64,000 bases of DNA, taken from positions 69,222 to 133,221 of the forward strand of contig CAZYIM010000002.1 of NCBI GenBank assembly GCA_964647565.1. Direction: 5' to 3'. The translations under genes and the position numbers were made by a program. Position 1 is the first letter of the stretch. The number at the start of each line of letters is the position of its first letter. Below the pieces are notes generated by a model. That model did no database searches. It was not told the origin of the DNA and saw only the letters and a program-made list of their open reading frames with translations. The DNA comes from an uncultured Methanosarcinales archaeon. Its GTDB lineage: Archaea; Nanobdellota; Nanobdellia; Woesearchaeales; CAZYIM01. Of this stretch, positions 9,574-63,087 are shown one piece after another.

Positions 9574-9576
9574 CTA

Positions 9577-21396: not shown

Positions 21397-21444
21397 ATTA
21401 TTGATTCACCTATTCCAATATAAATAATTTTCCCCCGGATGAAA

Positions 21445-37475: not shown

Positions 37476-37620
37476 TTGTTGAAAATTGCCTGTACCTGCG
37501 GTATTGTTGCTACAGACTTTCACAAATACAGAAAATTCTCTACTTTTAAGTGATAAAAATAGAAACATTTATAAATGAGTGAGACTCTGTATGATTCTTA
37601 TGCGTTTTAGACGAGGTAAT

Positions 37621-38967
37621 ATGATAAAAAAACTTGGACTAACAGGATTGGCTTTGCTTGGGATTACAGGATTCCTTGCAAAAGATACAGTCCTTGCTAA
37701 ACTTAGTAAATATACTTATCCTTCTGCATTTGAAGTTTTGGCATCAAAAGAACGAATCCATAGTACTGGTGCAGACACATTAAAGGTCAGTGATGTTCCT
37801 GATTTCAAATATGATGCTGCAAAAACATTTCTTAAGATGGCGCATGTTCTTACAGCAAAGAAATTGCCTGAAACCCATGCCGAGACTTGTGTTGATTATT
37901 CTTCGCTTACATATGGCAACTATCTATCTCTCCTTGAAACAAATAATAGGAAAGATTTATGGAACTATGTTCGCGTTGCACATGGAACTACAGTTAGTAT
38001 TACGGGTTCTGGCAGGCATACTTGGCTTCAGCTTAGAGACTTAAACAGATGGCTGAACTTTGAATCTTCATTAGATCATGTTGGATCAAATGCAAACATC
38101 ACTGGAAATGCTATTGATCTTGAGCGGATTTCTCCTGATTATTTGCTTATTAACGCTCTAGGTACAAGGTTTAGGCCTGTTGAGTTCTGGAAAAAAGAAC
38201 GGCCTGCGGAGATAAATCTTGGAAAGTGGGACAAACAATCACTTGGTGAACTATTAAGTGAAGCTCAAAATATTGAAGATGTGGGCGAAAGAATCCATTT
38301 TTTATCTGGGCAATTCAAAGAGGCAAGATATAAAGGAGGAACTATGGTTGGCAGCAATTGGGAGTTGGAACCTGAAATATTGGTTGCAAACCTGCAGAGT
38401 TTGGACTGTTTCACGTTCGTAGATTATGTTCATGCAATGTCTAAATCTTTTGATTATGATAGTTTTATAGATAACCTCAAGGCAACACGATACGGAGATG
38501 GTGAGGTCAGCTTCTCTAAACGAAACCACTATTTTACCCAGTGGATAGAGCGAAACAATCTTGATGATATAACATCTGAACTTGAAGGTACGCAAGTCAC
38601 AACCAAAACTATAAACCGCTTGACATTTATTGATACACTCGGGCATAAAACACATGCTCACTACTTACCGAGTCTGGATCACAACGGATTTTCATACCTA
38701 GAAAGGGATGTCTGGTATGTACCTCAAAAAGAGATCAAGTCAAATGTGCTTAGTGACCTAAAACCAGGGGATTTTGTAGGCTTATATTCTTCTGCAGAAT
38801 CTATTGATGTAGAACATCTGGGCATAATTACAAAAAAACCAAATGGCAAGACCTATATTCGGCATGCATCATCTGCAGCAGGCAGGGTCATAGATAGCGA
38901 GCTTGTATCTTATGTTAACAGGGTAAAATTATTTGAAGGCATAGTGGTCGCTAGAGCAAAAGACTGA
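37621..38967 (+). CDS. secreted transglutaminase-like domain fused to DUF1460 N-acetylmuramoyl-L-alanine amidase-like domain
   Basis: Signal peptide; TCVDYS..HTW..W..FE; then LDCFTFVDYV, RNHYF, H.GI, IRHASS, GIVVAR. Confidence 0.8.
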   Translation: MIKKLGLTGLALLGITGFLAKDTVLAKLSKYTYPSAFEVLASKERIHSTGADTLKVSDVPDFKYDAAKTFLKMAHVLTAKKLPETHAETCVDYSSLTYGNYLSLLETNNRKDLWNYVRVAHGTTVSITGSGRHTWLQLRDLNRWLNFESSLDHVGSNANITGNAIDLERISPDYLLINALGTRFRPVEFWKKERPAEINLGKWDKQSLGELLSEAQNIEDVGERIHFLSGQFKEARYKGGTMVGSNWELEPEILVANLQSLDCFTFVDYVHAMSKSFDYDSFIDNLKATRYGDGEVSFSKRNHYFTQWIERNNLDDITSELEGTQVTTKTINRLTFIDTLGHKTHAHYLPSLDHNGFSYLERDVWYVPQKEIKSNVLSDLKPGDFVGLYSSAESIDVEHLGIITKKPNGKTYIRHASSAAGRVIDSELVSYVNRVKLFEGIVVARAKD

Positions 38968-39119
38968 TGCTTTTCCCTGATCTGTTTTCTAATAATTGGT
39001 AAAAAACTGTACTTTTTTTATTTTTCATAAACAAGCTAAATTCTGCTTTTTATCGAGTAGTATAGAAGTCCTGCAAATCGAAAAGTTTTTAAACTTTGTT
39101 TTTAAAAGATTGAGTTGGG

Positions 39120-39608
39120 ATGAGTGTGGATTTGAAAAGTGAGGTGATAAGTTTCAAGTTATCACTAATTTCAATTGTTTTTATAATGTTAATAACTGTA
39201 TTGTTTCTCAACGCACCTGGAATAAACAAGGGTCTTGCAGGAAGCGGAATTTCTTGTTCAGAAATCTGTGCTGAACGGTCTGGGAAAGATTTTTGTTTAC
39301 CTGAAAACGTAGGATGTGTCATTCCGCGAAGCAGTCATGTTAGTGCAGGAGACAGCTATTGTTCTGAAAAATTTAAATCTTCTGCTGTTTGCTGTTGTGT
39401 TGGCAAAGTTGACGCTTTACCTAGGCGAGATACAGATATTTCTGATGATCCAGATCCTGATGATCCAGATCCTGATGAAGCATTGTACTTCACAAAGCCT
39501 AGAGAAGATAACTCTTGTGCTGGTGGAACCCAAGCTGAAAGTTGTAATGCGGATCTTGATTCCTGCAGTTCTGGAAACAACATTCTTTTTAATGGAGGGT
39601 TTGAGTGA
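39120..39608 (+). CDS. membrane-anchored Cys-rich protein ending in the first strand of a CBM4/9-like domain
   Basis: N-terminal TM, many Cys, DDPDP repeat, C-terminus NNILFNGGFE. Confidence 0.7.
   Translation: MSVDLKSEVISFKLSLISIVFIMLITVLFLNAPGINKGLAGSGISCSEICAERSGKDFCLPENVGCVIPRSSHVSAGDSYCSEKFKSSAVCCCVGKVDALPRRDTDISDDPDPDDPDPDEALYFTKPREDNSCAGGTQAESCNADLDSCSSGNNILFNGGFE
39442..39478 (+). repeat. in-frame 15-nt tandem repeat (about 2.5 copies)
   Basis: CTGATGATCCAGATC x2 plus CTGATGA, encoding a DDPDP linker. Confidence 0.85.
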
Positions 39609-41614
39609 TGAAGTTAGCAATCCTGTTATTGACATTGTTGCTTGTTTATCCTGCTTTTGTGCTTGCTGCAACAGTAGGAGGCTCTTGTTCTTGTGAAGAA
39701 GTATCATCACATGATGAAGAATATGGAGGCATAGAAAGATCTTGTGAACTTGAATGCGACTGTAATCCTGGCTACAGATGGCCTAATACAGACTGTGAAT
39801 TGAGGCAGAATAAATGTGTTCCCACATCTAGTGGCGAAGGGCTAAATTGTATATGTGAGCCTTTTTGTGATTGGAGTGCTGCTGATGATTGTACTGCAAC
39901 AATGTGGGGGCGCTGCGGCGAAAAATGTGTCAGGGAAACTGAAGGCCTGTCTTGTAAGGAAGGTGCAGGAACTTGCCATTCTGGACAATGCATACCCCGA
40001 GGATGGAACACTCAAGGCAACCCCCAAGAAGTAAAATTAGTTAACTCGCCAGTATACAATGGAAAATCTGCCTTAAAACTGCAATTCGCCAATTCAAATA
40101 AATGGTCGGGAATGGTGTCTGATCTGGTTCCTTTAGAAAGCGATACCACATATATACTATCAGCACGTATGGCTATAAGCGAAAATTTCGTAGGCAAGTT
40201 TGAATTGCACAGGCAAGCCTTTCCAACTGCTGGCGACGTTGAAAAGAACGGTAAAAAGTCATGGCATCACTATACTATCATCGATGGAGACTATTATTTA
40301 ACTGAATCAGATAAAAAAAACATATGGATCAAGAAATGGGTAAAATTCAAGACAGATAGTTCTACCAGGCTAGGTAAAATATTCCTAATCTCAACAACTG
40401 ACTCTTTCACAGGAACAGTATATGTTGATGATGTTCGCCTTGAAAAAGTGGATGACAGTCCAGTCTTTTCTTTAAGACCTGACTGCAATCTTTGTGGCTG
40501 CCCTGGCGGAAGTTCCTGCTCTAGAACTGGAGAATGCGTTGCAAATGAAGTTGCAAGCCTATCTGATGACCTCGCCTTTAAAATTTTGGCTATTGATGCA
40601 AAATATAAGCCTTTTTGTGACGAAATATCCTCAGAATCCATGCGAGACCTGTGCGTAGATGATTTGGCAGTCTCAACCAAGGATTTTCTGGCGTGTGATG
40701 ACATAGCCAGCCCAGCCAAAAAAAGCTTTTGTAAGAACCGCATCTTCACGTTTCTTGAGAAAAGGTCTCCTGTCTGCGGCGACACAATTGTCGAAGGGGG
40801 TGAAGAATGCGAGTCTGATTCAGACTGCTCCCACATCTCAAGCGGTGTTTGCGGCGAATGCGTCTGCTACAAATCAGTAGAAATCAGTTTTTCTGGTCTT
40901 AAATCGACGAGGTCAGCAAAAATGGATGCAAACATATTTGCCAACATCGATGCTGGCGACCTTACAAATGGTATATATGTTGTAAAGCCTGTTGAAGTTG
41001 TATATGAAGAAGATTTATCCACCCTTAAATACCAGGGAAAACCCCTGCTAGGACCTTATGAGCTAGTGTCTGCAGTTGCAGACCCTTATTATCATACTTT
41101 TTCTTGTTTTGAGACGAAATGTGAGGGGCTGTGCAACCTTTTTGGCGCTACGAAGATCATGGATTTTTTAGCAAAAGGCTCTATGGCAATTGCAAAAGGT
41201 GTTCTTTGGTGGCTTCCTACACATTTTGATGATTGCTTTAAAAAAGGGGAACAATCAGAAGGTGCCTGTGATCTTGATGTAAAGGATAAAGACGGCAACC
41301 TAAAAGCTGGTTGGGAGTTTTTATCCAGGAAAAAGGATGTTAATTTCAAATGTAATGTTATGGGTACTTGGTTCAGAAGCTTAACTTCAGGCAAGGTTCC
41401 ACAATGCAAATATGCTGATCGGTTGTCTACTGAAATCAGGCAGAGCAGCTGCTATAGTATTATCAATGGTAATAATCTGGTTCTGTCTTTCCCAACTTAT
41501 TATGCTTTTCAGAATAGTCAGGGGCAGAATCTTGGCAGCTCAAAGACTTATTGGCCTAAAAAACCAGAAGAATATAAGTTTAGTTATACTGTTAGGGGTA
41601 TGGTGGTGCCATGA
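39605..41614 (+). CDS. secreted Cys-rich protein with CBM4/9-like galactose-binding module
   Basis: Signal peptide; PRGW...YNGKSAL...VYVDDVRL; CGDTIVEGGEEC cysteine-rich repeat. Confidence 0.75.
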   Translation: MMKLAILLLTLLLVYPAFVLAATVGGSCSCEEVSSHDEEYGGIERSCELECDCNPGYRWPNTDCELRQNKCVPTSSGEGLNCICEPFCDWSAADDCTATMWGRCGEKCVRETEGLSCKEGAGTCHSGQCIPRGWNTQGNPQEVKLVNSPVYNGKSALKLQFANSNKWSGMVSDLVPLESDTTYILSARMAISENFVGKFELHRQAFPTAGDVEKNGKKSWHHYTIIDGDYYLTESDKKNIWIKKWVKFKTDSSTRLGKIFLISTTDSFTGTVYVDDVRLEKVDDSPVFSLRPDCNLCGCPGGSSCSRTGECVANEVASLSDDLAFKILAIDAKYKPFCDEISSESMRDLCVDDLAVSTKDFLACDDIASPAKKSFCKNRIFTFLEKRSPVCGDTIVEGGEECESDSDCSHISSGVCGECVCYKSVEISFSGLKSTRSAKMDANIFANIDAGDLTNGIYVVKPVEVVYEEDLSTLKYQGKPLLGPYELVSAVADPYYHTFSCFETKCEGLCNLFGATKIMDFLAKGSMAIAKGVLWWLPTHFDDCFKKGEQSEGACDLDVKDKDGNLKAGWEFLSRKKDVNFKCNVMGTWFRSLTSGKVPQCKYADRLSTEIRQSSCYSIINGNNLVLSFPTYYAFQNSQGQNLGSSKTYWPKKPEEYKFSYTVRGMVVP

Positions 41615-44600
41615 TGAAATCGAGAATCGTGATTCTGGTCTTGATGTTGTTTTTGGTGTCTGCTGCTTTTACATCTGCTGACTTGATCTGTTCTGTTCCT
41701 GATTATGCTGGCGGGGCAGAATGGTCTGAAATGGCTTTGACTTTTATTGGAGAGGCAGCAACCAGCACTGCATCTGAATCTGTCAAAGTCGGCAGAATGC
41801 TTTTGAATGAAGTTCCTTTTCTCTATCTTTGTTCTCCTGGCATAGGCTTTTCATCATGCCCAAATGTGCTAGCCAACCATTATCCTGAGTTTGATGCATA
41901 CTGGGATAATTATCTGGAATTTGACCTAAAGCCACAAAGCAATCAATTCTATAGTTACAGTCATTTCTATCTTGCTGATTACGATGACATCATATCTGCC
42001 ATAGGATTTCCTTCCAGCTTTCCCTTGACTGCAAAGTTCTCTTTTGAAGCCAAGAATGATATTGATAGCTGTAGGGCTGATACAGAAATAACCTTTGTTG
42101 ACACTATTGAACCTTCGATAGATTATCTGTCTTCAATGTGCTCAAGTGCCAATTCAGCGAGTTTTGTCTTATTTGTCAGTGAGAATGTGGTTGGTGGTTC
42201 CGAAGGTGATCCTGTTTGGGGTGATCCTGTTTTTAGGGACATTACTGTGAACTTTGGTGATGGAACGACTAAGAAATACAACTCTGTCTCTGATCTTGAA
42301 TTTGATTCTCATGATTATGGTTCTGAAGGGGTTTATACTGCAACAGTCACCCTGACTGACCTTGGAGGCAATAGCGATAGTGAAACAACTATTGTTAAAT
42401 GTGGAGACCAGACAGTGAAAGCAGTGCTTACGGCACAAGACGAACAAGGTAACTTCTATTCAACTGATCCTGACTCCCAGTTTTATGCAGAAACAATTCG
42501 CTTAAACGCTGATGATGCTGCTGCTGATGAACTTGTATTCAGCATCGGTCAAAGCAAGCCTCATGCGCTGATCAGAGGATTTGAATTAGACTACGATTCA
42601 AGTAGTATTGATCTGGTGGATGTTGCTGATAAAACAGAGTATAATATTGATTTCTCGAGATATGCTAATCATGATTTTAAACGTAGATATACGTCAGGGG
42701 GTCATTATTATGCTGTATTGATGGTTGAGGATTCCTATTTAACTCCTGATTTTGCCTCTTTTGAGCTTATTGTTTCTGGTTCTGGTAGTGGTGGGGAAAT
42801 TGGCGGCGCTGGATCGGATAATGATTTCACCCCTCCAACCCATGAGCCTCAAGCAAAATCTTTTTGTGTAGTTGATGAAGATTGTGGTATAGGATCTGTA
42901 TGCTATAACGGCAAATGCGTATCCTTGGACCTAAACAAGCATGCTTGCAAAGAGTCAGACGGATATCGAAAATTTTGTGATGAAAGCGTATGTATTGACA
43001 ATCCAACATACAATCATCCTGATATTGCTGCTACCCTGATGGCCAGCCCTCCAAGATATGATACTTGCGGTTGTATGGGCGGTAGTAGTTTTACAGATGA
43101 TTCTTCGAAATGTGCGTCTTTTACTCATGTTAAAGAGTTCTCTTGTGGTGCAGGAAGCAATGTAGATTCTGAGGTGAAAGTTTGTTCTGCTGATAAGACT
43201 TGTATACAGACGGTGTTTGGTGGTGAGTGTAGGCCTAAATCTAGTGCTCAAGTCTTGATTTTACAGACCACTCATGACAGCCCTGATAAGATGTTTGAGA
43301 ACACAGCAGAACACCTTAGAAAAGATGCCCTGGCCAGGGGATATGCTCCTGAAAACATTTATGTCAGGACCATGTCTGTCAAACAAGACATTGTAAACAA
43401 AATAAATAGTTTTTCAAGTCCATTGTCTGAACTCATATTCATCACGCATGCTTGGATTAGTGATGATCCTGCGCCTGCTAATTCAATACTGGATACTTAT
43501 GGTGGTTCTTTGCTTGCAGGTAAAACAAATGGTAAGACAACGCCTGACAGTATCCTCAGGGCTATTCATGTTCCTGGGTTTGTGAAGAACTTGAAGCCAG
43601 GAATAATAAATGATAAGACCATAACCACATTCCAGGCTTGTCATTCTGGTGGTGGAAAAAGCTGGAGTGAACGCTTTGCATCTATTTCTGAATCTGAATT
43701 GAAAGACCGTACTCGTAATGCAGACAGGTCTATTGCCAGTATTTGGGCTAAATACACTGATAGCTATGCTCTTGGACCGCCTGGCGGAACCCTTTTTCTG
43801 CAGCTAGATGATGAAAAGAGATTAGTGGCTGTTGATGAGTATTATTGGCATTATATTGAGGGGGGTGGTGTGAATGGCAAGAGATACTCCCAGGAGGGAA
43901 TCTCTTATTTTGAGGCCCTCAAGAAATATGCTCTTGCACCTCGTGAATGGAATATATTTGGTCCTGATGGTAAATTGATTCCTATTGAGCAGGATAATGT
44001 AGTCACTATGTCTGTCAATGAACGTTTTGATATAGATATCCATGATTCCTATTTTACTGTGAAGTATGATGGTAGTGTGAGTCCTGATGGCAAGTTTGAT
44101 ATCTTGTTGACCTATGGTGAGACTGTAGGCTTGTGTAATCTTGGAGAGACTCCTGGGTTTGGTTGTTTATTAGATCCCTCCAATATATTTGACACCATTG
44201 TAAATTCTCCTGATATGAGTTCGTGTGGTGATTTTACTGATCATCTTGTCAGTGCAGTGGATGCTGATGGTCAGTTTGTTGATGTGATAGAGCATGCTGA
44301 ACTGATTGAGCGCGTTGAGAATGAGTTTTTTGTGACCATGCTTGAACAAGCAGGATACACTTCTTCAGATCTTACATTTGAAGATTATGGACATGGGCAA
44401 ATAACAGGCGCAGTTACTGGTTTAAGTTCACTTATCTTTTCCAAGAAAAAACTAAAATTGATCAGCACGGTTATGTATGGTGAAGTCGGTGCTAAATCAA
44501 CAGATGTCTTTTTTTCAATGCTTAATGTCGCAAAAGCCTATGCGTCTGGCCAGGATAAAAACCAAGCCATATACCTGCTCAAATCAGACATGAAGCTATT

Positions 44601-47600
44601 CTTGACTTGTGTCCAAAAACAATTGACTCATTTGGATAAGCTTGAATTTGAGAAAGAGAGTGAGTGGGAGTCGATTGGATTTAATTCTGATGTTCAATAC
44701 AAGCATGTTGATTATTCGAGAAGTGTCCGAGCAGAGGTTGTCAAGGCAGACCTTGCTGGCGCAGTTTTTGATATTGTAAGGTCTGATGAGTATGATGGGC
44801 GTTCTGCTGGCGAGTTGGTCCGATCTAATCTGGGAATGGTTGCTGCAATGAACGGCGTCAATTATGATACGAGCGGTAATCCCAGTGAGCTTGTGATCAG
44901 GAACTCGGAAATCGTCAAGGATTTTGCTGGTTCTAATGAAGTCCGAGATCCTGAAAATTCTGGTGTAATCGGCATATTGAATGATGGTTCTGTGGTGGGT
45001 TTTAGGGGTGATGAATATTTGGCTTTGCCTGATTCAGAGAAGAAAAAATTTAAGTTCGGGGTTCAGGGCAAGCTGCTGGTACATAAGAGTCTTGTAAACC
45101 CTGTCCTTGCTGCTAATGAGATGGATGTCAATTATATGACTCACAGGAGCACTGTGTGTGTGACTGCTGAGGGTGAATTGCAGCTTATCAACTTTCGAGC
45201 TTCTGACCTGACAGATAGCACTGCAACTGAAGCTCTGGGCTTTATAAGAAAGCTCGTAGGTGTCAGTCTTTTTGAGGCTGCCCAACTGTTGGTTTCTGAC
45301 GAATATGGTTGTGAATATGCAATCTCCTTAGATGGAGGTACTAAGTCTAGTTTTGGTGCTAGGAATAAAGTTACTATATCTGGCGTTTCTTCACCAACAT
45401 ATCTTGTCATGTATGAGGATATGGACGCTATTGCTCCTGTATACCCTAGTGCTGAAGAGTTCAAAACAGCTCTTAAAGATGCAGATGATAAGATGACAAC
45501 GCTTACAACTGTAATAGGTAATCAGGATGCGAATAGTAATCTAAAAGATGTTCTTGACTCAACCAATAACCTTGGTGATGTTAACATACAGGTTTTAAGA
45601 TTGCAGAACGGCCTGGATAAGTTTTTTAATGATCCTGAGTATTCTGATTATCTGAAAAGATCTGATGTTTATTTTAACAAGGATTTGAAAAAATATAACT
45701 CATATGATTTCTATTTCATGCATCTTTTGTCTTCGGCACAAAGATTGATGGTCTGGATGCACTCTGATCAGGGCGAGGATGCATTTAAGGACCAGTATGC
45801 TTCTGATTATGAATCAGTCATAGAGGACACTGTTTTACAATTAAGAACGTTTATCAACGTGCTTTATAATCTACTTTCTCTTACAGCAGAGAACTGTAAT
45901 GCTCTTAAGGAATGTCAGGATTCTGTTTTCAATCATGGTAGCAACGATATGAATATTATTTCAATCTCTAGTCCTCTTCTCGAAAATTTTGATAGTTTCG
46001 ATGGAACTATTCTAAGATATTTTGAAACATCTTCGAAAAATCCTCCTTTTAATTCTGCCTTAGTGGAGTCCCCCATTCAAATGAAGACCTATATCCTTGA
46101 CCCCCTTAAAACTGCTGATGATCCAACAAAACTAAAGCTATTTAGAGTTTTGAATTTGCTCTTTGAATCTGCATCGGTTGGCAAGTATTACGGACCCTGG
46201 AGTGTAACTTATGAAAGAGCAGGACGAAGCTTAACAGAAGCAATATTAATAGGTCTGAAAAGTGAAAATGATGATGTAAAATTGTCTGCTTTGAACTTGT
46301 TTTCCACGCTGGTATCTGATAATCCACCTTTTAAGGTCTTATTACTTAAAGGTACAAGTTCATGGGATATCTCGAGGCAATATTATGACATCCTTTTTGA
46401 ATTAGCCAAAGGTGATGACCTGCGATATGTGGACCCTGCTCTGGATTGCCTGGAACATATGCTGGCAGGAGTGCCCTCCTCTGAAAGCCAGGATTTCTCA
46501 CCAGGATTTCAGCAGGAAGTACAATACCCTAACCTAGATAAAGCATACGCTGAATTGATTAACTATCTGGAGGATCCTGATGCTAATGCTGCTGTTGTTG
46601 AAAAAATAGCAGGATTATTTGATACATTGTTCAAGCATTTTAAAACATTTAATGGTTTCAAATATGACTACATGATGGATTCTCAAGAGGAAATATATAT
46701 CAATCGTCAAGAAATGCATAGAAAAGTCATATCAGTCCTGACAGACAGATTGACATATGAAGAGAGTGATTTCACCAGAAATAAGCTTGCTATGGCTTTA
46801 CTCTCTGCAGGAGAGGTTGACAGTATTTTTGGGGAAAGCATAAATGACCTGATGAAAACCAAGATAACTGAGTTATTAAGTGCAACTTCAGATGAGAACA
46901 TAGATTATTATACAAATTTTCTTGCCCCGATGTTATCTAATATCCCTCAGAAATCGATGACTGAGATTGCAGGCCCGTTATTTGAAGGTATTGACTTCGA
47001 ATTATCTATAGAAACTACCCATCCTGGAACCCATCGAATCTTCAAGATCCTCAAAAAGCTAGCTGAAAAGATGAGCCCCAAAACAAAAGTCAGGTCCAAA
47101 CAATTTTATGATGATATAATTGTTCAATTATTCGACATAATCAAATCTGAATCAGTACCTATTGAACAGAAAAGGCTGGCTTTTGAGGCTGTCTATGATG
47201 CATATATGAGTGCAGAAGGTGAATCTGAGGGTGGATGGAGTGTGAAAATAGTAAAACTTTTGCCTTTCAAGAAACAAATCCAGGAATTCAGTCAAGATGA
47301 AGTTGTTTCACATAGAGCTCTCCACCTTCTTGAAATAATAGATTCATATGAACAGGAATTAAAAAGTGATGACTTCAATGCAGCTTATATTACCAGGCAG
47401 GACATTGCTGAAGCAATGGCCATAGTCTTTTCAGAAGGCCTATTTTTTAGAGGTGAGCATAACTCTGATGTTGAACCCACAGAATCCCAAAAACAAATAG
47501 CCATGTTGATGGCGAACTGGGCAAGGAATCGGGCTTTATCTCGTGTCTGGCCAAACTCGCTTCACGAAGTTGGTGATAAAAGGCATATTTTTGGATATTA

Positions 47601-48237
47601 TCAAAGCAAAGTCATACCTATTTTCGTTGCATACGGTATACTCACAGAGGAAGATCTGAAATCAAAAAAGGTTCTTTGGTCTTATGTCAAAACCACTTAT
47701 GTATATACACATGTAATAAGTGGATTAAGAACTATTGATTTTGAAAGCAAATGGTACAAAGGTATTGAAGACGCAGTCATATATGGATTGACTCATGAGT
47801 ATGATCAGCTTCCTGGCATCAAGTGCTTTAAACCGCCTGTTTATTTTGGCGAGGACCTAGTCCGACCCCGTGATAAATGTACTGCCAAAATCGTTTCTAA
47901 TAAACTTCTCAACAGGGCGTGTGAGGGTCCGGGAGAAGGCGGGACATTCAAATCTGAGGTTTACGGAGATTTCCATTTTCTGGCAGAGTTCCCTGGCAGG
48001 ATAAATGCATTTGATACCGGCAAACTTAAAGATCTTCGGGCATCTTACTGCTTGCCGTGTCCAAAAACAAATGCAGATTATTTTGATGGCAGGCCTTATG
48101 TGACTTGGAAATTGAATACCCCTATTGATGAATGGATTTATAAATCAGACCATAATGATGATTTACTGAAATGTTGGAACCTTGGTAAGCCTGAATATTC
48201 CAGATTCATAAAACGGACCGAAGTTAGGGGTGGATAA
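41611..48237 (+). CDS. giant secreted multidomain protein (PKD, Cys-rich, caspase-like H/C dyad, NAGPA-like, helical repeats, SleB-like)
   Basis: Signal peptide; NFGDG..HDY...GVYT; ITHA..QACHSG; AAMNG..RS.V..LDGG; IVFSEG..MANWARNR..WP. Confidence 0.75.
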   Translation: MMKSRIVILVLMLFLVSAAFTSADLICSVPDYAGGAEWSEMALTFIGEAATSTASESVKVGRMLLNEVPFLYLCSPGIGFSSCPNVLANHYPEFDAYWDNYLEFDLKPQSNQFYSYSHFYLADYDDIISAIGFPSSFPLTAKFSFEAKNDIDSCRADTEITFVDTIEPSIDYLSSMCSSANSASFVLFVSENVVGGSEGDPVWGDPVFRDITVNFGDGTTKKYNSVSDLEFDSHDYGSEGVYTATVTLTDLGGNSDSETTIVKCGDQTVKAVLTAQDEQGNFYSTDPDSQFYAETIRLNADDAAADELVFSIGQSKPHALIRGFELDYDSSSIDLVDVADKTEYNIDFSRYANHDFKRRYTSGGHYYAVLMVEDSYLTPDFASFELIVSGSGSGGEIGGAGSDNDFTPPTHEPQAKSFCVVDEDCGIGSVCYNGKCVSLDLNKHACKESDGYRKFCDESVCIDNPTYNHPDIAATLMASPPRYDTCGCMGGSSFTDDSSKCASFTHVKEFSCGAGSNVDSEVKVCSADKTCIQTVFGGECRPKSSAQVLILQTTHDSPDKMFENTAEHLRKDALARGYAPENIYVRTMSVKQDIVNKINSFSSPLSELIFITHAWISDDPAPANSILDTYGGSLLAGKTNGKTTPDSILRAIHVPGFVKNLKPGIINDKTITTFQACHSGGGKSWSERFASISESELKDRTRNADRSIASIWAKYTDSYALGPPGGTLFLQLDDEKRLVAVDEYYWHYIEGGGVNGKRYSQEGISYFEALKKYALAPREWNIFGPDGKLIPIEQDNVVTMSVNERFDIDIHDSYFTVKYDGSVSPDGKFDILLTYGETVGLCNLGETPGFGCLLDPSNIFDTIVNSPDMSSCGDFTDHLVSAVDADGQFVDVIEHAELIERVENEFFVTMLEQAGYTSSDLTFEDYGHGQITGAVTGLSSLIFSKKKLKLISTVMYGEVGAKSTDVFFSMLNVAKAYASGQDKNQAIYLLKSDMKLFLTCVQKQLTHLDKLEFEKESEWESIGFNSDVQYKHVDYSRSVRAEVVKADLAGAVFDIVRSDEYDGRSAGELVRSNLGMVAAMNGVNYDTSGNPSELVIRNSEIVKDFAGSNEVRDPENSGVIGILNDGSVVGFRGDEYLALPDSEKKKFKFGVQGKLLVHKSLVNPVLAANEMDVNYMTHRSTVCVTAEGELQLINFRASDLTDSTATEALGFIRKLVGVSLFEAAQLLVSDEYGCEYAISLDGGTKSSFGARNKVTISGVSSPTYLVMYEDMDAIAPVYPSAEEFKTALKDADDKMTTLTTVIGNQDANSNLKDVLDSTNNLGDVNIQVLRLQNGLDKFFNDPEYSDYLKRSDVYFNKDLKKYNSYDFYFMHLLSSAQRLMVWMHSDQGEDAFKDQYASDYESVIEDTVLQLRTFINVLYNLLSLTAENCNALKECQDSVFNHGSNDMNIISISSPLLENFDSFDGTILRYFETSSKNPPFNSALVESPIQMKTYILDPLKTADDPTKLKLFRVLNLLFESASVGKYYGPWSVTYERAGRSLTEAILIGLKSENDDVKLSALNLFSTLVSDNPPFKVLLLKGTSSWDISRQYYDILFELAKGDDLRYVDPALDCLEHMLAGVPSSESQDFSPGFQQEVQYPNLDKAYAELINYLEDPDANAAVVEKIAGLFDTLFKHFKTFNGFKYDYMMDSQEEIYINRQEMHRKVISVLTDRLTYEESDFTRNKLAMALLSAGEVDSIFGESINDLMKTKITELLSATSDENIDYYTNFLAPMLSNIPQKSMTEIAGPLFEGIDFELSIETTHPGTHRIFKILKKLAEKMSPKTKVRSKQFYDDIIVQLFDIIKSESVPIEQKRLAFEAVYDAYMSAEGESEGGWSVKIVKLLPFKKQIQEFSQDEVVSHRALHLLEIIDSYEQELKSDDFNAAYITRQDIAEAMAIVFSEGLFFRGEHNSDVEPTESQKQIAMLMANWARNRALSRVWPNSLHEVGDKRHIFGYYQSKVIPIFVAYGILTEEDLKSKKVLWSYVKTTYVYTHVISGLRTIDFESKWYKGIEDAVIYGLTHEYDQLPGIKCFKPPVYFGEDLVRPRDKCTAKIVSNKLLNRACEGPGEGGTFKSEVYGDFHFLAEFPGRINAFDTGKLKDLRASYCLPCPKTNADYFDGRPYVTWKLNTPIDEWIYKSDHNDDLLKCWNLGKPEYSRFIKRTEVRGG

Positions 48238-48283
48238 ATCAGTTAAGACCAAGAAAGATCATATTGTATTATTACAGAAATAA

Positions 48284-48438
48284 TGCCCATGCCGGGACTT
48301 TCAAATCAAGAGGCATTCTTGGCGCCTCAAAGGATGTTTGAACCCGGGTCGTAAGCTGTTTGCACCGGCAAACCCAGGAAAAACTCGGTTTTATCGTTGC
48401 CGCAAGCTTATATGCTATCCAGGCTACACTACATGGGC
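48284..48438 (-). tRNA. tRNA-Arg(GCG) with two BHB introns (37/38, 42 nt; 59/60, 39 nt)
   Basis: GCCCATG/CATGGGC acceptor stem, TAAGC/GCTTA anticodon stem, CCGGG-TTCAAAT-CCCGG T arm; removing 48358-48399 and 48298-48336 gives a 74-nt cloverleaf. Confidence 0.93.
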
Positions 48439-48634
48439 ATCCTGCTGATGGAGGACAGGCTCTTTTTTATGTTTTGTTGTTTATTCTTCCTGATTTTAAC
48501 CATCAGATAGTGGTGAAATGCAAAAGATTTAAATATCACTCTTTATTCTCTTTAATCTTCTCGGGCAAGAAATGATGCTAGGTATAGTAATTTGTCTTAG
48601 CATCAATCATATAGAAATTTTAAAAGGTGAAAAA

Positions 48635-55747: not shown

Positions 55748-56977
55748 ATGAAGCGAGAAATAGACATACATAACTACCAAAGAAGGCTTGAATCAGCTGT
55801 GAAGCTGGTTGAAAAGTCTAAGATTTCTAGACGGAATAAAGAATTGATCTTTGCGTTTAGAGACTTTGCTTCTCTGGATGGGCTCTCTGTGGCTCGAATT
55901 GAAAGGTATTTAGGAGTTATGAAAGACTGGGCATTACTTCTTGGAAAAGACTTTGATAAGGCCACAAAAGAAGATATTATGCGAGCTGTTCGGGCTGTGC
56001 AGGAAACAGAGAAGTATTCACCCTGGACAAAATCCACATATAAGACGATGTTGAAGAGGTTTTTTAAATGGCTAAAGAAAGAAGAGAATCCTGAGGAGAT
56101 AGCCTGGATAAAATGCAGGATAAAGCTGACTGAGAAGAGACTTCCCCAGAACAATGACTTATTGACAGAGGAAGAGGTTCAAAAGCTGGTTTCTCTGGCA
56201 GAACACCCTAGAGACAAGGCCTTTATCGCTACTTTATACGAGTCAGGCACTCGAATCGGCGAATTGGCATCTTTACAAATCAAGAACATAAACTTCGACG
56301 AATACGGAGCAGTCCTGAATGTTCACGGAAAAACAGGCTCAAGGCCCGTCAGAATAATCTCCTCAACACCCCATCTTGTTACATTGCTACAAAACCACCC
56401 ACTCAGAAACGACCCAACAGCACCCCTCTGGATATGCATAGGGACAACCAACCACAACAAACCCCTCAAATACCAAAGCATAAGAGTAATGCTAATGCGA
56501 CTCTTTGAAAAAGCCCAGATCAAGAAAAGATTTAATCCGCATATGTTCCGGCATTCTCGAGCAACATTTCTAGCCGACCACCTCACAGAGTTCCAAATGA
56601 ACCAATACTTTGGTTGGATACAAGGCTCAAAAATGCCCTCGACATATATTCATATGTCAGGCAAGAAGATCGACAGCTCGATATTGGCTCTGAATGGGAT
56701 TGAACAGAAGGAAAACCACAAAGAAAGCAAGCTAAAGCCGAAAATCTGTCCTAGATGTGATACAATCAACACGAGTGAAGCGAGGTTTTGTACTAAGTGT
56801 GCGGGGATATTGGATTTGAAGACCGCTCAGGAACTAGAAAAAAGAAATAAGGATGAACGAAAAATTAGAGATAAGAGCGACAACATCATGCAGGACTTGC
56901 TGAGTGATAAGGAGTTTTATGATCTGTTTATCAAGAAAGTCAAAGAACTAAGGCTGAAAGAGAGGATGATAACCTAA
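55748..56977 (+). CDS. tyrosine recombinase/integrase with C-terminal zinc ribbon
   Basis: YESGTRIGE, GKTG, HMFRHSRAT, FGW...M...Y.H catalytic residues; CPRC..N...FC..C. Confidence 0.93.
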   Translation: MKREIDIHNYQRRLESAVKLVEKSKISRRNKELIFAFRDFASLDGLSVARIERYLGVMKDWALLLGKDFDKATKEDIMRAVRAVQETEKYSPWTKSTYKTMLKRFFKWLKKEENPEEIAWIKCRIKLTEKRLPQNNDLLTEEEVQKLVSLAEHPRDKAFIATLYESGTRIGELASLQIKNINFDEYGAVLNVHGKTGSRPVRIISSTPHLVTLLQNHPLRNDPTAPLWICIGTTNHNKPLKYQSIRVMLMRLFEKAQIKKRFNPHMFRHSRATFLADHLTEFQMNQYFGWIQGSKMPSTYIHMSGKKIDSSILALNGIEQKENHKESKLKPKICPRCDTINTSEARFCTKCAGILDLKTAQELEKRNKDERKIRDKSDNIMQDLLSDKEFYDLFIKKVKELRLKERMIT

Positions 56978-56984
56978 AAAAAGC

Positions 56985-57096
56985 ATTTTTGTCAATAATT
57001 TATGTGTTTATTTATAAAGAAGTTGTCAAAAATCAAGAGAAAAAGTAGATATTTTTGTCAAAAATATTTTGTTTATTTATAAAGGACTTGTCAAAA
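56985..57096 (+). repeat. two ~46-nt direct repeats carrying four TTGTCAA boxes
   Basis: ATTTTTGTCAA...TGTTTATTTATAAAG...TTGTCAAAA at 56985 and 57051. Confidence 0.75.
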
Positions 57097-57137
57097 TTAC
57101 CGAAACATTTAAATAGTTAAGGAGAACACCCATAACA

Positions 57138-58621
57138 TGGCCATATTCGATATAAGTCAATTATCTGAACAAAATCCCTGGTGGGTTGACGTAAATAGCA
57201 TAGTAAAAGATATTAAAATCAGTACTCTAAATAAGCTAAAGTATCAATGGGATCCAAACCTTAGACACTACATTCGATTGGATACAGATGTAATCTACAC
57301 GATTAGGGGACCAAGACAGGTAGGAAAAACTACCCTACTAAAAATCATCATCAGAGATCTACTGTTTAACAAAGAAGTAAAACCTGAAAACATATTTTTC
57401 TGGTCATGTGAACTGAATAGTGAAGATGAATTAAATAAGATAATCCAGACCTATTTGGATTGGAGACATAATGCTAAAAAAGAAAGAAAATACATCTTTC
57501 TAGATGAAGTCTGCGGTATAAAAAACTGGCCCAAAGAGATTATTTATCTTGCTAACAAAGGCGAATTTAAAAATTGTTCTGTGATATTAACAGGTTCACA
57601 TTCAATGGACTTAAAGCATTCTACGGAACTAATGCCTGGAAGAAGAGGGGGAGATGAAGATAATCCTTTGGATAAAATATTGCTCCCCATGAAATTCTCA
57701 GAGTTTGTACAACTGCTATGGCCAGAGTTCAAAGAGAAGATGTTCGATCACAACATAGTAAAAAAAGAAGATCGACATAACAAAATACTTCAACTATTTG
57801 AAGGAAAGCTTGATGATGATTTAAAGAACCTGATGCTTTACAAAAAACAGCTAGACTCACTTCTAGATATTTACCTCATAACAGGAGGCATTCCTGCAAC
57901 AATCAATGAACTAAAGGCCACAAGCAAACTATCTCCAAGATTATTTAATATTTATCTAACTTCAATAATTGGCGACCTAAATAGATACAACTACAAAGAG
58001 CATTATTTCAAACAACTAATGAGAGAAATATTCAACACAATATCAAATCCAATAAGCTGGAACAGCTTTACTAAAAACACAGAAGTAAAATCCCATAACA
58101 CAGTCCAAGAATACATTACAGCATTAGAAGAGCTTTATATTGCCAACTGCTCATACAGATGCTCAATACATGACAAAAGAATACACCCTTTTATGAAAAA
58201 GATATATGTCCAAGATCCATTCATATTTCACGCTCTGCATGGATGGTCAAATGGAAAAAAAGATTACTTCCAAAATGCAAAAGCTAACATCCTAAATCTA
58301 GAAACAAAAAGCAAATTGGTAGAAAGTGTTGTCTATAATCACCTGTGCAGACTTGCTTTTGGTCTTAATCCGAAAGACCTCTTTGATCCCAAAGACCACA
58401 TCTGCTATTACGAGGACAAAAGCAAAAAAGAAGTAGATTTTGTTCTCCTATTTGACGAAAAATACTATCCCTTCGAGGTCAAATACCAATCAACAATAAA
58501 TAACCAAGATTTTTATGCATTCAAGTCATTTAACAAAGGAGTACTGATAACCAAGAATGAGCTTGGAATATACAGGAACTATGCTCAGATACCCGTATCC
58601 TTGTTTTTAATGATGATATAA
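57138..58621 (+). CDS. AAA+ ATPase with DUF4143 / PD-(D/E)xK C-terminus
   Basis: QNPWW, GPRQVGKTT, FLDEV, LTGS, GG.P, EVDF..FEVK motifs. Confidence 0.92.
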
Positions 58622-58647
58622 ACTAAAGTTTCAACTAATTCATAGTC

Positions 58648-60312
58648 ATGGATTTTAACAAAAAAAGATATCAAAAATATAGACCTATAATAAATAAGAC
58701 TGTACATAGATTGTTAAAGGAAGATAGATTTGATTTCGATGTTGGTTATTCTTTTATTAACGTTGACGATCACGTATTTTTTGGATTAGATGTCAATCAA
58801 TTTGTGGATGAATTTTTCAAGAAAAAATATTTCACTAAACCTAAATATAGAAACTACAAATACGTATTTTTCATTAGTCGATCATTTCCAGATGATTTCT
58901 TAAAAAAAGAAAAAGTAACCACAATAGATTTTCCACCTGTATTAATGAGGAACTTGAAAGTAAAGACCCCTCTTTCTATAACTGATCTACTCAGACTTAA
59001 TGATTCTGTGCTTAAACACTTTCCTCTTATGTATTTCTTAAGATCGATTTATGACAACAAATACAATGCAGATCAGCAGATGTTAGATTCCGGTGATTTT
59101 GAAAAAATCTTGGAATCTGGACAAAAAAAGAAAATTGCTGATATAATGAAATATGTTGATATGATTTCGAAATCACATCAGAAATCATTCAAGAATGGAA
59201 CAAATCTAAAATATGTTTGTCAAAAATACTGTTTACAAGATTATTTTTCTAAAAAATCGAATTTAAACAGCATATTGAGCAATGAGAAATTTATTATAGT
59301 GCATGCTCCTAGATCTCATCCCGATGATACCATAAGGCCAAATGTTATGTCACTTCTATTGTATTACATCTCTGAATTCAATAGAAACAACAAACAAGAT
59401 ACCATTTTTTTTATAGATGATATTCATCTTTTCACAAACAAATATAGCGACTGTAGAGTAAACCACGCCAGCATATTCAGAATGGCTTTTAATAGCGTAA
59501 ATAATCGTGATCCTCTAGCTGAAAGACCTGATGAAAAAATTGAACACTTATTTCATTTCAATATTTTTACAAATAACTTGTTCGATTTTGGAGAGAAAGA
59601 AGAAGAAATCGGCGACAGAATTTCCTTTTTACTCAACTTTAACGAAAAAATAATATTTAATATCAGCACATATTTCTATAATATTTTATTAAAATATTAT
59701 TCTTCAGAGCTTGGTTTTATCGCAAGATTAAATAAATTGGGTCAAGATATAAACGAGTATTGGGATGATGCAAATAATGGTAATGAACATGATGAGTATC
59801 CATTCATGCTAGAATATTATGACTATCATGCTTCAAGCAGCAGTTTTAATCCATACATAACACCTATTGACTTCGATAAATATCCATTAAATGAAAAAAT
59901 CCTTAACTCAATAATTCTGTCAAGGGAAATTTTAAATCTTGAATTTAAGCTTAACTTTAAAGGCTGCAAAAACAGAATAAAACAAAATGTAATAGGTATG
60001 CTTAGATCAAAAGGAGGCAACATTATTATTGGAATCGAAAATAAAATGAAAGCACCCATTGGTATAACTTTAAAAGAAGAAGGTAATTTTAATAGACCTA
60101 GTGAACTCTGTGATAATATGATGGAGTTCATATCAAGTAACATAAAACCCTTACCTCCTCCAGAAAATATCAGAATACATAATTTTACAATAAAAGATAA
60201 TTTGTTCATTACGATAACCGTTCTAGGTGATAAAGATACTATATATTATGATAATAAGGGACAGACATGGAAGAGACTTGATGGAATAAATAAACAATGT
60301 CATAAAATCTAA
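58648..60312 (+). CDS. protein with C-terminal Schlafen/AlbA_2 domain
   Basis: E..NLEFK...GM..SKGGNIIIGI motif; N-terminal region with Walker-B-like IFFIDDIH. Confidence 0.75.
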   Translation: MDFNKKRYQKYRPIINKTVHRLLKEDRFDFDVGYSFINVDDHVFFGLDVNQFVDEFFKKKYFTKPKYRNYKYVFFISRSFPDDFLKKEKVTTIDFPPVLMRNLKVKTPLSITDLLRLNDSVLKHFPLMYFLRSIYDNKYNADQQMLDSGDFEKILESGQKKKIADIMKYVDMISKSHQKSFKNGTNLKYVCQKYCLQDYFSKKSNLNSILSNEKFIIVHAPRSHPDDTIRPNVMSLLLYYISEFNRNNKQDTIFFIDDIHLFTNKYSDCRVNHASIFRMAFNSVNNRDPLAERPDEKIEHLFHFNIFTNNLFDFGEKEEEIGDRISFLLNFNEKIIFNISTYFYNILLKYYSSELGFIARLNKLGQDINEYWDDANNGNEHDEYPFMLEYYDYHASSSSFNPYITPIDFDKYPLNEKILNSIILSREILNLEFKLNFKGCKNRIKQNVIGMLRSKGGNIIIGIENKMKAPIGITLKEEGNFNRPSELCDNMMEFISSNIKPLPPPENIRIHNFTIKDNLFITITVLGDKDTIYYDNKGQTWKRLDGINKQCHKI

Positions 60313-60356
60313 AAGATAGAATAAATTTAAAAACAACAAATAAATCTTCATACACT

Positions 60357-61316
60357 ATGGCTTCAAATTTGCATGACAATCATATTTCTATTAATACAAC
60401 GAGAGAAATCGATCATTTATGGAATTGGTTAGATACCTTAACAAATAAAACGTTAGTTAGAAAATTATTGAACGAGCGTATAGATAATAATTTTTATATG
60501 GATAAAGATGCATGTCTAACATCTATTAAAGAACTTAATAAAAAACTAGTTGACAAAAATAATTTGTATGATATTAAATTTATTGAGAAAGAAAATATTA
60601 ATAACACCTTAATCTCAGAGATCATCAATTCCGCTAAACAAGCAAAAGAATTATTTCAAAAAGCCAGAGAATCTTCAATTCTTGTTCAGCCATTATTATA
60701 TTTATATGGAACGGAAGCACTTGAACGATGCTTAATTCTAATGACTTTTCAAAAAAACAATGATTCTCAATCACACGGACTTGCACTTTCTTCAAGTAAA
60801 AGTGGTTGTACGATTCGACAGAAAGGTTTTTTCCAATTAGTTCATTTTTGTGTATCCACAGACCAATCTATATTTTATAAGGATTGGTATAAAATGAATC
60901 TAAAAGATCTGTTCTATTTAAATCCTGAGTTAATTTATGTATATGAGTATATCTATGACTCGCCTCATCAACAAATTAAAGAATGGAATAAACAGAGTCA
61001 AAACAAACAATTAACAATTGATTTAGAATTTGATAGACATTTACCTATACATAAAAATTCCATCAATTTTGAATATATTGATATATTACATATTACTTGT
61101 TTTATTTTAAGTACTTATATGAGATATGCACCAGGCAGTTGGATTGCTTTTTTAGAAAATTCTAATGAAGGCCATTTAGCAAAAATATTTTTAACAATAT
61201 ATCCAAGAAGAATGCCGAACTTAATACTAAATTACATTTATGGAAAAAAATTCTTAATCGCTCCAACTGCAAGATTTGGTGGTGAGATAAAATCTAAGTT
61301 TCTTAAAAAATCTTAA
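60357..61316 (+). CDS. YaaC-like protein
   Basis: QA.E.F..A...PL.LY.G, SHGL, LS..MRY.P..W motifs. Confidence 0.7.
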   Translation: MASNLHDNHISINTTREIDHLWNWLDTLTNKTLVRKLLNERIDNNFYMDKDACLTSIKELNKKLVDKNNLYDIKFIEKENINNTLISEIINSAKQAKELFQKARESSILVQPLLYLYGTEALERCLILMTFQKNNDSQSHGLALSSSKSGCTIRQKGFFQLVHFCVSTDQSIFYKDWYKMNLKDLFYLNPELIYVYEYIYDSPHQQIKEWNKQSQNKQLTIDLEFDRHLPIHKNSINFEYIDILHITCFILSTYMRYAPGSWIAFLENSNEGHLAKIFLTIYPRRMPNLILNYIYGKKFLIAPTARFGGEIKSKFLKKS

Positions 61317-61378
61317 TGACCAAATCGTATTACATTCTCCGAGTTCTCTTTATCTATTAACGTGACCTTTCTCTAACT

Positions 61379-61573
61379 ATGATCAAAACCCATACAATAA
61401 AATTCTTAGTTGAGGAAGAGCAATTTGACAGAATCAAACGCAACGCTTCTCTGAAAGGCCATAAGACCATATCTTCTTACCTTCGCCATTTGGCTTTGGA
61501 GCATGATTATTATTTTGAGAACTTGATCTTTGAGATCCACAAGGAGGTGGTTCGGAATGGAAGAAAGCCTTGA
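61379..61573 (+). CDS. small ribbon-helix-helix DNA-binding protein
   Basis: IKF.V...QF.RI...A...G..TISSYLR..AL. Confidence 0.7.
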   Translation: MIKTHTIKFLVEEEQFDRIKRNASLKGHKTISSYLRHLALEHDYYFENLIFEIHKEVVRNGRKP

Positions 61574-61631
61574 GTTTGAGATTCCTGAATGGATTAAAAT
61601 CCTTCAGAAGGTATTAGAAGATGACGAATGA
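61557..61631 (+). CDS. 24-aa small ORF MEESLEFEIPEWIKILQKVLEDDE
   Basis: Strong GGAGGTG Shine-Dalgarno; overlaps both neighbours. Confidence 0.45.
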   Translation: MEESLEFEIPEWIKILQKVLEDDE

Positions 61632-62877: not shown

Positions 62878-62928
62878 AACAATCCCTTCTACGCCATAAA
62901 AAGAGATTATATGTATATATAAGCCAAC

Positions 62929-63040: not shown

Positions 63041-63087
63041 AACGGAGACGATAAACATAATCTATAAACAGAGAATAAGCAACTAAA

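Follow-up and report, generated by a model that had tools for sequence, protein, structure and literature searches.

This work concerns a locus of four genes, P1 to P4, which begins with a gene for a bacterial-type amidase and ends with a gene for a giant secreted-type protein. It lies in a stretch of 64,000 nucleotides (nt), referred to as the window, which corresponds to G000:C2:69222-133221, where G000 is the source genome, an archaeon of the order Woesearchaeales, and C2 one of its contigs. All four genes are consecutive and co-oriented on the + strand between positions 37621 and 48237, as had been stated by an earlier interpretation made from the DNA letters alone (the sequence-only reading), which proposed a surface apparatus that binds and opens bacterial walls. 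The genes and the features within them are listed by position in the window, with protein lengths in amino acids (aa); L120 is a second locus, found in metagenome data.

37568..37575, + strand: TATA-like box TTTATAAA, found by a pattern scan about 45 nt 5' of the P1 ATG
37621-38967, + strand: P1, 448 aa; the ATG lies within a longer GTG-started frame
37795..38103, + strand: P1 N-terminal domain (N-domain), residues ~59-161, papain/transglutaminase-like fold
38305..38928, + strand: P1 AmiA-like amidase domain (PF07313)
39120-39608, + strand: P2, 162 aa
39605/39608-41614, + strand: P3, 668 aa (from 39608)
40001-40213, + strand: weak CBM4_9-like region of P3 (PF02018)
41611-48237, + strand: P4, 2208 aa
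42241..42390, + strand: marginal PKD-like Ig domain of P4 (PF18911)
43645..44355, + strand: conserved block of P4, residues 679-915, 31% identity to the L120 giant protein
44833..45372, + strand: NAGPA domain of P4 (PF09992) with the variant loop LDGGTKSS at residue 1241
47101..48102, + strand: C-terminal domain of P4, residues 1831-2164, kept only with the L120 giant protein

The last three genes overlap, as had been claimed: P2 and P3 share 1 nt if P3 starts with ATG (TGATG) or 4 nt if it starts with GTG, and P3 and P4 share 4 nt (ATGA). A ribosome-binding-like GGAGG precedes P3, and together with P3's own signal peptide it rules out that P2 and P3 are halves of one broken gene. The gap between P1 and P2 measures 152 nt and includes T-runs as well as TATA-like boxes, at 39086 and 39099; the TATA-like box upstream of P1 would be the promoter of this gene. 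The four proteins had been described as exported. This was clear for P2, P3 and P4, which carry strong N-terminal hydrophobic segments (Kyte-Doolittle 2.3-2.6), and less so for P1, whose weaker signal consists of KK and a 14-residue hydrophobic stretch, no 19-residue window exceeding 1.6. Cysteines make up 6.8% of P2 and 5.8% of P3 and are clustered at residues 400-500 of P4, which has no C-terminal anchor. The G+C content (GC) of the locus is 0.39-0.42, close to that of the window (0.389), and thus gives no sign of recent insertion; its normal value and the distance also rule out that the locus is part of an integrase island at 55.7-64 kb.

The source genome comprises 86 contigs with 2.68 Mb (completeness 86.9%, contamination 1.85%). 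Contig C15 carries archaeal small-subunit (1405 bits) and large-subunit rRNA, and the first 69 kb of C2 encode Pop5 (RNase P), proteasome alpha, SBDS and Rrp4/Rrp41/Rrp42 as well as an archaeal-type ProRS, AlaXM, a Hel308-like protein and FlaI/FlaJ-like proteins. The contig carrying the locus is thus archaeal, and a bacterial origin of the contig is dismissed. Comparisons were made with a sample of 201 order genomes (the source genome and 200 others; 152 are high-quality) and with a phylum sample of 401 genomes. Genomes of the same order measure 0.6-2.3 Mb and are spread over well more than 100 families, which fits a DPANN-like order of small genomes; the source genome exceeds all 200 order relatives tabulated. 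The stretch is present in 8 DNA runs of 2 studies (marine/seawater metagenomes), which may be the source samples and not independent, and short contigs from these runs are identical to the window, without indels.

The AmiA-like domain of P1 was assigned to family PF07313 (DUF1460) with 165.4 bits (cut-off 27; E 1.5e-48) over profile positions 3-200 of 202, and sequence matches in the PDB were obtained with 2p1g (E 1.7e-14) and 4h4j (E 1.7e-13). An AlphaFold2 (AF2) model of P1, calculated from a 12-row alignment, had a mean predicted local distance difference test score (pLDDT) of 65, with the two domains mostly at 60-95 and the AmiA-like domain at about 85-95 over most of its length. Foldseek searches with this model retrieved 4h4j (E 3.6e-12), 4q68 (E 4.9e-12), 2im9 (E 1.3e-11) and further structures down to E 3.1e-10. 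Structural comparison with VIA gave Z 22.6 for 2im9 (root-mean-square deviation, rmsd, 3.3; 232 residues aligned) and Z 20.1 for 2p1g, with ordinary NlpC/P60 wall hydrolases coming next at Z 8-10. The P1 motifs DCFTF, VEHLG and RHASS line up with the same residues in 2p1g and 4h4j, and C49, H185 and H201 are invariant in alignment A4; the catalytic triad of the family is described as Cys-His-His (PMC10318531). Sequence and predicted fold confirm P1 as a member of the bacterial-type amidase family that cleaves between N-acetylmuramic acid (MurNAc) and L-Ala, with its catalytic triad intact, and on this point the sequence-only reading was right.

AmiA-like matches above cut-off occur in 1/201 order genomes and 1/401 phylum genomes, the source genome being the only one both times; two further genomes of the phylum sample have sub-threshold matches. 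Among other genomes (one-genome-per-species contigs) 563 AmiA-like relatives were found, and the best 80 of these, with 33-43% identity, all have bacterial titles; they include Thermodesulfobacteriota, Nitrospirota, Campylobacterota, Pseudomonadota, Actinomycetota and candidate phyla radiation (CPR) lineages. A quick maximum-likelihood tree of 88 domains places P1 and the L120 amidase as sisters within the bacterial radiation (SH-aLRT 91), a position that fits one old transfer of both out of bacteria. Judged by these relatives, the amidase is a rare import of bacterial origin.

The other domain of P1, its N-domain, is likewise of papain type in the model. VIA comparison of model residues 59-161 gave Z 7.0 for 2iho (rmsd 3.6, 92 aligned), 6.8 for 3phz, 5.9 for LapG (4fgo) and 5.7 for TglA (9crn), values that may mean merely a common arrangement, as Z is below 8. 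The N-domain comes structurally closest to the MOA and PSL lectins, namely to their protease domains. All sequences of the family alignment (A3, 6/6) keep C57, H100 and E115, and Cys, His and Glu are likewise present in P0010, the L120 homologue. The domain had no sequence match in the PDB, and none of the six A3 members matched a clan-related Pfam family at E<=1. At E<=0.01 the family was detected in 5/200 other order genomes, in two of them just at E ~0.004, and a paralogue is encoded on contig C48 of the source genome; a word-indexed search with the domain returned nothing beyond a fragment of P1. The N-domain probably processes a protein partner, and this partner is possibly P4.

The locus L120 was found by a metagenome scan with the alignment of the P4 C-terminus (A5, P4 and L120). 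It encodes on one strand and in this order a giant protein, a homologue of the P1 N-domain, an AmiA-like protein and NamZ, followed by an RNase J-like protein and HisRS. The giant has at least 1733 aa, its open reading frame being cut by the contig end, and three BLASTP blocks run collinear with P4: residues 679-915 (31% identity), the NAGPA region (31%) and residues 1831-2164 (26%, E 5e-24). A protein of 217 aa represents the N-domain family, here as a separate gene; the AmiA-like protein has 290 aa and is 34% identical to P1 (E 3e-50), and the NamZ exo-beta-N-acetylmuramidase has 430 aa (E 1.2e-69). Each of these three small proteins begins with a hydrophobic or twin-arginine-like signal, and there is start-to-stop overlap between their genes. 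Identity between the RNase J-like gene and its orthologues in 41/41 order genomes is 49-55% (49% with that of the source genome), so that L120 comes from a different and distant order member. The protease-like domain stands alone as a gene in one lineage and is fused to the amidase in the other, which ties the two together. This recurrence with fusion is the strongest evidence that giant, protease-like domain and amidase work together, and because the set recurs beside NamZ, MurNAc-containing bacterial peptidoglycan is the suggested substrate.

The recurrence also bears on the view that the locus is no functional unit, but a row of exported-protein genes adjacent by chance, with the amidase as a stray transfer without partner. 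P2, P3 and most of P4 are without assigned function, and the T-runs and TATA-like boxes in the gap part P1 from P2-P4; both points speak for such a view. A chance neighbourhood is at odds with the start/stop overlaps of P2, P3 and P4, with the inconspicuous GC of the locus, and with the meeting of giant, protease-like gene and amidase again at L120, in a lineage of which a housekeeping gene is only ~49% identical. We therefore regard chance adjacency as very improbable.

P4, the product of the last and longest gene, has the L120 giant as its one partial homologue. A word-indexed full-length search of 5.8 billion clusters, covering all length classes except 'longer' and 'shorter', matched P4 with itself alone. 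In the 200 other order genomes no relatives of residues 530-1010 were found and residues 1260-2208 gave three chance-level matches only (E 0.003-0.009); a scan of viral contigs with A5 gave no match. PKD domains in the plural had been claimed for the locus, and one marginal region was left of them: the profiles PF18911/PF00801 (cut-off 27) gave 25.6 bits with the whole of P4 and 29.6 bits with residues 1-500 alone. The conserved block at residues 679-915, which has no assignment, is preceded by a His/Cys motif, 'ITHAW...FQACHSGGG'. For residues 530-1010 the best ESM Atlas neighbour (score 0.85) is unnamed, and a weak lead points to Peptidase_C80 (13% of a cluster at 0.80).

The NAGPA domain call was confirmed at profile level, with 43.3 bits for PF09992 (cut-off 25, E 5.8e-11) at residues 1075-1254 and profile positions 2-150 of 169. 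The NAGPA loop DGGGS with the catalytic Asp is described as invariant in 8 sequences (PMC13474241). In P4 the loop reads D1241-G-G-T-K-S, so that the family assignment of the sequence-only reading stands and the canonical loop does not: Asp is kept, Gly is replaced by Thr and Ser by Lys. The loop is DGGSRS (LDGGSRSG) in the L120 giant, DGGGS in NAGPA proteins of the order genomes G092 and G169, and DPGGS in relatives fused to a glycosyltransferase. That P4 and L120 have a variant loop in common speaks for a conserved subtype and not for decay.

A SleB-like lytic transglycosylase had been claimed for the locus, and at the C-terminus of P4 it could not be upheld by any profile. Even at E<=10, PF07486 (SleB, Hydrolase_2) matched neither the last 408 aa of P4 nor P0009, a piece of the L120 giant, and it had no match at this threshold in the whole source genome, the Bacillus and Caulobacter controls being positive. 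SleB was likewise absent from the PHROGs and NCBIfam matches of the P4 C-terminus, and phmmer and profile searches of the PDB gave chance matches only (PABP, bromodomains). An exhaustive HMMER search of 1.84 billion representatives with the last 408 aa returned P4 itself and P0009. Structure prediction domain by domain, which had been suggested as a check, bore out the amidase of P1 (Foldseek, VIA) and gave an unusable model for P4 residues 1900-2208 (AF2, 2-sequence alignment, mean pLDDT 35.2). What is left is a resemblance at motif level. P4 contains the motif E-x17-NR-x5-WP-x-S-L-x-E-V at residues ~1955-1981, with a candidate Glu near 1955, and the spacing E-x17-NR-x5-[WY]P is, by eye, that of two Bartonella Hydrolase_2 proteins (70-72 bits). 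A comparison of A5 with the alignment of these two proteins (A6; 2 sequences each) by hhalign gave a single match with a probability of 1.4% (E 0.038), which pairs MAN..NR..S..WP..EV with VVMNRVNS.AYPKTICGVV. The ESM Atlas lead for this region has a best score of 0.85, with PF07486 in 16% of one neighbour cluster. A divergent SleB-like domain at the P4 C-terminus is therefore possible.

P2 is a membrane-anchored, Cys-rich protein with an Asp/Pro-rich linker and matches no family of Pfam, PHROGs or NCBIfam. Its C-terminus ends with NGGFE directly before the stop codon (window 39591-39605). This is the usual opening of CBM4_9-type modules, so that P2 may represent a truncated copy of a gene like P3; a BLASTP comparison found nothing significant between P2 and P3, or between P3 and the P4 N-terminus. 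The carbohydrate-binding module that had been claimed fell short in P3, where CBM_4_9 (PF02018) reached 21.5 bits, below the cut-off of 25.9 (E 3.2e-4; profile positions 16-87 of 136). A 2047-aa frame in the order genome G168 has 37% identity to the CBM-like part. Relatives of P3 at E<=1e-3 occur in 18/201 order genomes, one of them unpublished (G120), and are mostly short Cys-rich matches. Over its first ~130 aa, P3 shares 42% identity with the N-terminus of an 836-aa RHS/YD-repeat protein on the same contig, which suggests that the two share an export or stalk module of surface/toxin-like proteins. RHS/YD-repeat proteins with RHS-associated core domains are encoded outside the window, at ~34-44 kb of C2, by genes at the following positions:

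L007:15172-16611: RHS/YD-repeat gene
L008:1617-4124: RHS/YD-repeat gene
L008:4111-5517: RHS/YD-repeat gene

Wall-active domains were also surveyed outside the locus. SLT domains are present in 125/201 order genomes (62%; 94/152 of the high-quality ones), and the only one above cut-off in the source genome lies at C24:36348-36659, in an 848-aa frame with an N-terminal anchor; Pfam gave no SLT match in P1-P4. NAGPA domains were found in 13/201 order genomes. In G092 a 1737-aa protein with Metallophos, GH3 and NAGPA is encoded by a gene that overlaps that of a 429-aa SLT protein, and this pair is another candidate for wall degradation in the order:

L025 (G092:C1:158000-174000), 6126-12622, - strand: Metallophos+GH3+NAGPA / SLT pair

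G169 encodes a protein with NAGPA and GDSL. In G049, G187 and G098, NAGPA is fused to a GT1-like region and lies beside glycosyltransferase genes.

A rival reading is that the targets are the archaeon's own envelope or materials other than peptidoglycan, for example in the maturation or turnover of S-layer glycoproteins or exopolysaccharide; NAGPA would then 'uncover' GlcNAc-phosphate groups (GlcNAc, N-acetylglucosamine), and the papain-like domains would be proteases or transglutaminases. The GT1-like fusions in G049, G187 and G098 fit such a role, and so do the likeness of the P1 N-domain to the protein-processing enzymes LapG and TglA and the presence of the P3 N-terminal module in a second exported protein of the genome, a hint at a general export/anchor module; furthermore, genes for the catabolism of muropeptide sugars were not found in the source genome. 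Against this, characterized AmiA-like and NamZ members, as far as described, have only peptidoglycan-derived substrates (PMC4600125, PMC8054146), the best 80 of the 563 AmiA-like relatives are all bacterial, and L120 adds a MurNAc-specific enzyme. The source genome, with no PBP match and a single Mur-ligase match as in archaeal control genomes, shows no sign of peptidoglycan synthesis, which makes remodelling of an own wall unlikely. On balance, an action on the own envelope or on non-peptidoglycan substrates appears quite improbable to us.

The reading that we prefer, with middling confidence, is that the locus encodes an extracellular module which processes fragments of bacterial peptidoglycan and adheres to bacterial walls, combining a bacterial-derived amidase with lineage-specific surface proteins. 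Because characterized AmiA and NamZ act on fragments or chain ends, the locus would be the downstream, digestive part and not the wall opener. In a first step, lytic transglycosylases encoded elsewhere would cut bacterial murein into anhydro-muropeptides. The AmiA-like domain of the membrane-tethered P1 would then cleave the MurNAc-L-Ala bond and free the stem peptides, which could be taken up as amino-acid sources. P4 would contribute in a third step binding and spacing modules (PKD-like, Cys-rich) and a divergent NAGPA-type glycosidase; it may trim glycan or phosphodiester-linked polymers, and its orphan C-terminal domain is perhaps a lysozyme-like glycan hydrolase. The Cys-rich P2 and P3 would serve, fourth, as anchor and carbohydrate-binding accessories, and fifth, the transglutaminase/LapG-like domain fused to the amidase would process a protein partner, possibly P4. 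The NAGPA proteins of G092 and G169, fused or adjacent to wall-glycan enzymes, count in favor of this peptidoglycan-processing module.

Several observations weigh against it. The P1 amidase is only ~21-27% identical to solved family members, and its specificity may therefore differ from theirs; the sister pair of P1 and L120 in the tree consists of two long branches, which calls for caution. Only one further locus (2 instances known) attests that the gene set recurs, and its giant gene is incomplete. The NAGPA loop of P4 is altered, and in three relatives the position of NAGPA with glycosyltransferases hints at a role on glycans of the cell itself. No LysM, PG_binding or SH3b domain is among the Pfam matches of P1-P4. 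In the source genome (87% complete, so that absences are provisional) NamZ, GH3/NagZ and AnmK were not detected and MurQ reached 27.9 bits compared with a cut-off of 302; a route for the sugar part is, for the present, not visible, and the benefit may thus lie in peptides, GlcNAc or adhesion and not in MurNAc catabolism. No RNA run is among the listed holders of the stretch.

The stronger claim, close to that of the sequence-only reading, is that the surface apparatus itself binds and opens intact sacculi with amidase, NAGPA and SleB-type activities, and so attaches to or penetrates a bacterial host or prey. A giant secreted P4 with Ig-like and Cys-rich modules would suit this, the amidase triad is intact, and the E-x17-NR-x5-[WY]P motif of the P4 C-terminus is in register with genuine Hydrolase_2 in the only hhalign match, to which the ESM Atlas neighbour cluster (PF07486 in 16% of members, score 0.85) can be added. 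There are also precedents: bacterial hosts or prey have been proposed for Woese- and Pacearchaeota (PMC8204110, PMC9723730), and haloarchaeal peptidoglycan hydrolases are reported to kill bacteria (PMC12352652). Other findings count against it. SleB was absent from profile-library and PDB searches, the hhalign probability is very low, the NAGPA loop is altered, and as reported AmiA is strict for soluble degradation products (PMC4600125) and the NamZ family exo-lytic (PMC8054146). No peptidoglycan-binding domain is among the Pfam matches, and the genome, the largest of the order sample, weakens the case for obligate dependence on a host. Direct opening of sacculi is rather unlikely in our view. 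The observations of the sequence-only reading hold for the most part, and its direction, towards bacterial wall material, was right, while 'opens walls' and SleB were overstated, and a bacterial host becomes one option beside scavenging, predation and attachment.

A more elaborate scheme would join most of these elements in a three-part archaeal surface system, in which a LapG-like protease domain, fused to a bacterial-derived muropeptide amidase or encoded next to it, controls or matures an enzyme-adhesin of ~2,000 residues with a re-tooled NAGPA and a SleB-related domain, for grazing on bacterial sacculi. NAGPA might then cut GlcNAc-1-phosphate links, for example the teichoic-acid anchor on MurNAc, the SleB-related domain would be a new, very divergent lysozyme-like family, and the system would belong to an unusually large-genomed DPANN archaeon. 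We regard this scheme as speculative and its being correct as improbable.

The use of large extracellular murein-degrading proteins by DPANN archaea against bacteria is already published (PMC8204110, PMC9723730, PMC12352652). Castelle et al. (2021) described proteins of Pace- and Woesearchaeota that reach 3,000 aa and carry murein lytic transglycosylase domains, and proposed bacterial hosts (PMC8204110), and Vigneron et al. (2022) proposed 'vampiristic' Woesearchaeota from GH23 and pore-forming toxin genes (PMC9723730). These fam00969/GH23 proteins resemble the proteins of the locus in being very large, exported and proposed wall binders or degraders. P1-P4, however, contain no SLT; their enzymes are an amidase and a NAGPA-type domain, and P4 is without a full-length relative. 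Strock et al. (2025) found modular peptidoglycan hydrolases in 175/3,706 archaeal genomes, with Nanoarchaeota prominent, and showed killing for two haloarchaeal enzymes (PMC12352652). Like the amidase locus, these hydrolases are archaeal, acquired from bacteria by horizontal transfer, patchy and secreted, but the survey demanded a catalytic and a known cell-wall-binding domain; DUF1460, AmiA, NlpC and PF07313 do not appear in the main text of that paper. Our literature search found no paper tying DUF1460/AmiA, NamZ or NAGPA to DPANN archaea, although supplementary tables could list them. New are thus the enzyme set, the giant orphan P4, the transglutaminase/LapG-like domain of P1 and the recurrence in a second lineage.

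The closest characterized relative is AmiA of Bacteroides uniformis (4h4j, 4q5k, 4q68), which shares Pfam family, fold, triad and export with P1 (PMC4600125, PMC10318531). It is described as strict for soluble anhydro-muropeptides and degradation products, not intact walls, and as specific for MurNAc-containing substrates (PMC4600125). P1 differs in being archaeal and 21-27% identical to solved members, and its substrate role is predicted from sequence. Its amidase is fused to a transglutaminase/LapG-like domain, compared with an alpha/beta hydrolase domain in BT1087. In bacterial salvage AmiA acts together with YkfC in Bacteroides (PMC4600125); L120 pairs its AmiA-like protein with NamZ. The founding exo-lytic, MurNAc-specific muramidase NamZ (PMC8054146) of Bacillus subtilis and its Tannerella forsythia counterpart (bioRxiv 10.1101/2021.12.02.470905) act, as AmiA does, on fragments or chain ends, and T. 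forsythia is described as turning such enzymes on the walls of neighbouring bacteria. Unlike these salvage bacteria, the archaeon has no peptidoglycan to rebuild and no detected MurQ, AnmK or NagZ, so that the benefit would be nutritional or adhesive.

In the bacterial LapG-LapA system a transglutaminase-like cysteine protease releases a giant adhesin. Both archaeal loci likewise encode a small Cys protease-like domain by a giant surface protein (VIA Z 5.9 to LapG), but this Z is in the range of a common arrangement and the third triad residue is Glu. With the human uncovering enzyme (NAGPA/DUF2233) P4 shares the Pfam family and the catalytic Asp (PMC13474241); it differs in the loop DGGTKS, in long insertions and in the position of the domain inside a 2208-aa protein. 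The published genomic hints at the partners of DPANN archaea and at their mode of contact are nearly all SLT/GH23. The locus adds an amidase, a NAGPA-type domain and, in the sister locus, NamZ, enzymes typical of bacterial wall recycling that are tied here to a giant orphan protein and recur in two divergent lineages, and this combination would point to feeding on wall fragments and not only to breaching walls. If the P4 C-terminus is indeed lysozyme-like, it would represent a new family invisible to current profile libraries.

Several further features of the window were observed. Just 3' of P4, at 48283-48445 (+ strand), lies a 165-nt intergenic segment with a G+C content above that of the neighbouring DNA. 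A 9-bp stem (AUGCCCAUG...CAUGGGCAU) closes the segment, and a T-run comes after it at 48463. The segment is present in a single copy in the genome, has a folding z-score of -1.89 and has no Rfam match at E<=1. On the - strand, positions 16813-22143 encode a signalling cluster made up of a response regulator-methyltransferase, a KaiC-like ATPase and two FIST proteins, and a histidine kinase-type ATPase lies at 12170-14191; this is rich for a DPANN-type genome. HEPN and nucleotidyltransferase genes adjoin at 3245-4334 (- strand), arranged as in a toxin-antitoxin pair. At 55748-56977 a tyrosine integrase with a zinc ribbon is encoded, followed by an island of ~30% GC up to position 64000 with genes for an AAA_14/DUF4143 ATPase, a Schlafen AlbA_2 protein and a YaaC-like protein; the region 55748-64000 is probably an integrated element or a defence island.

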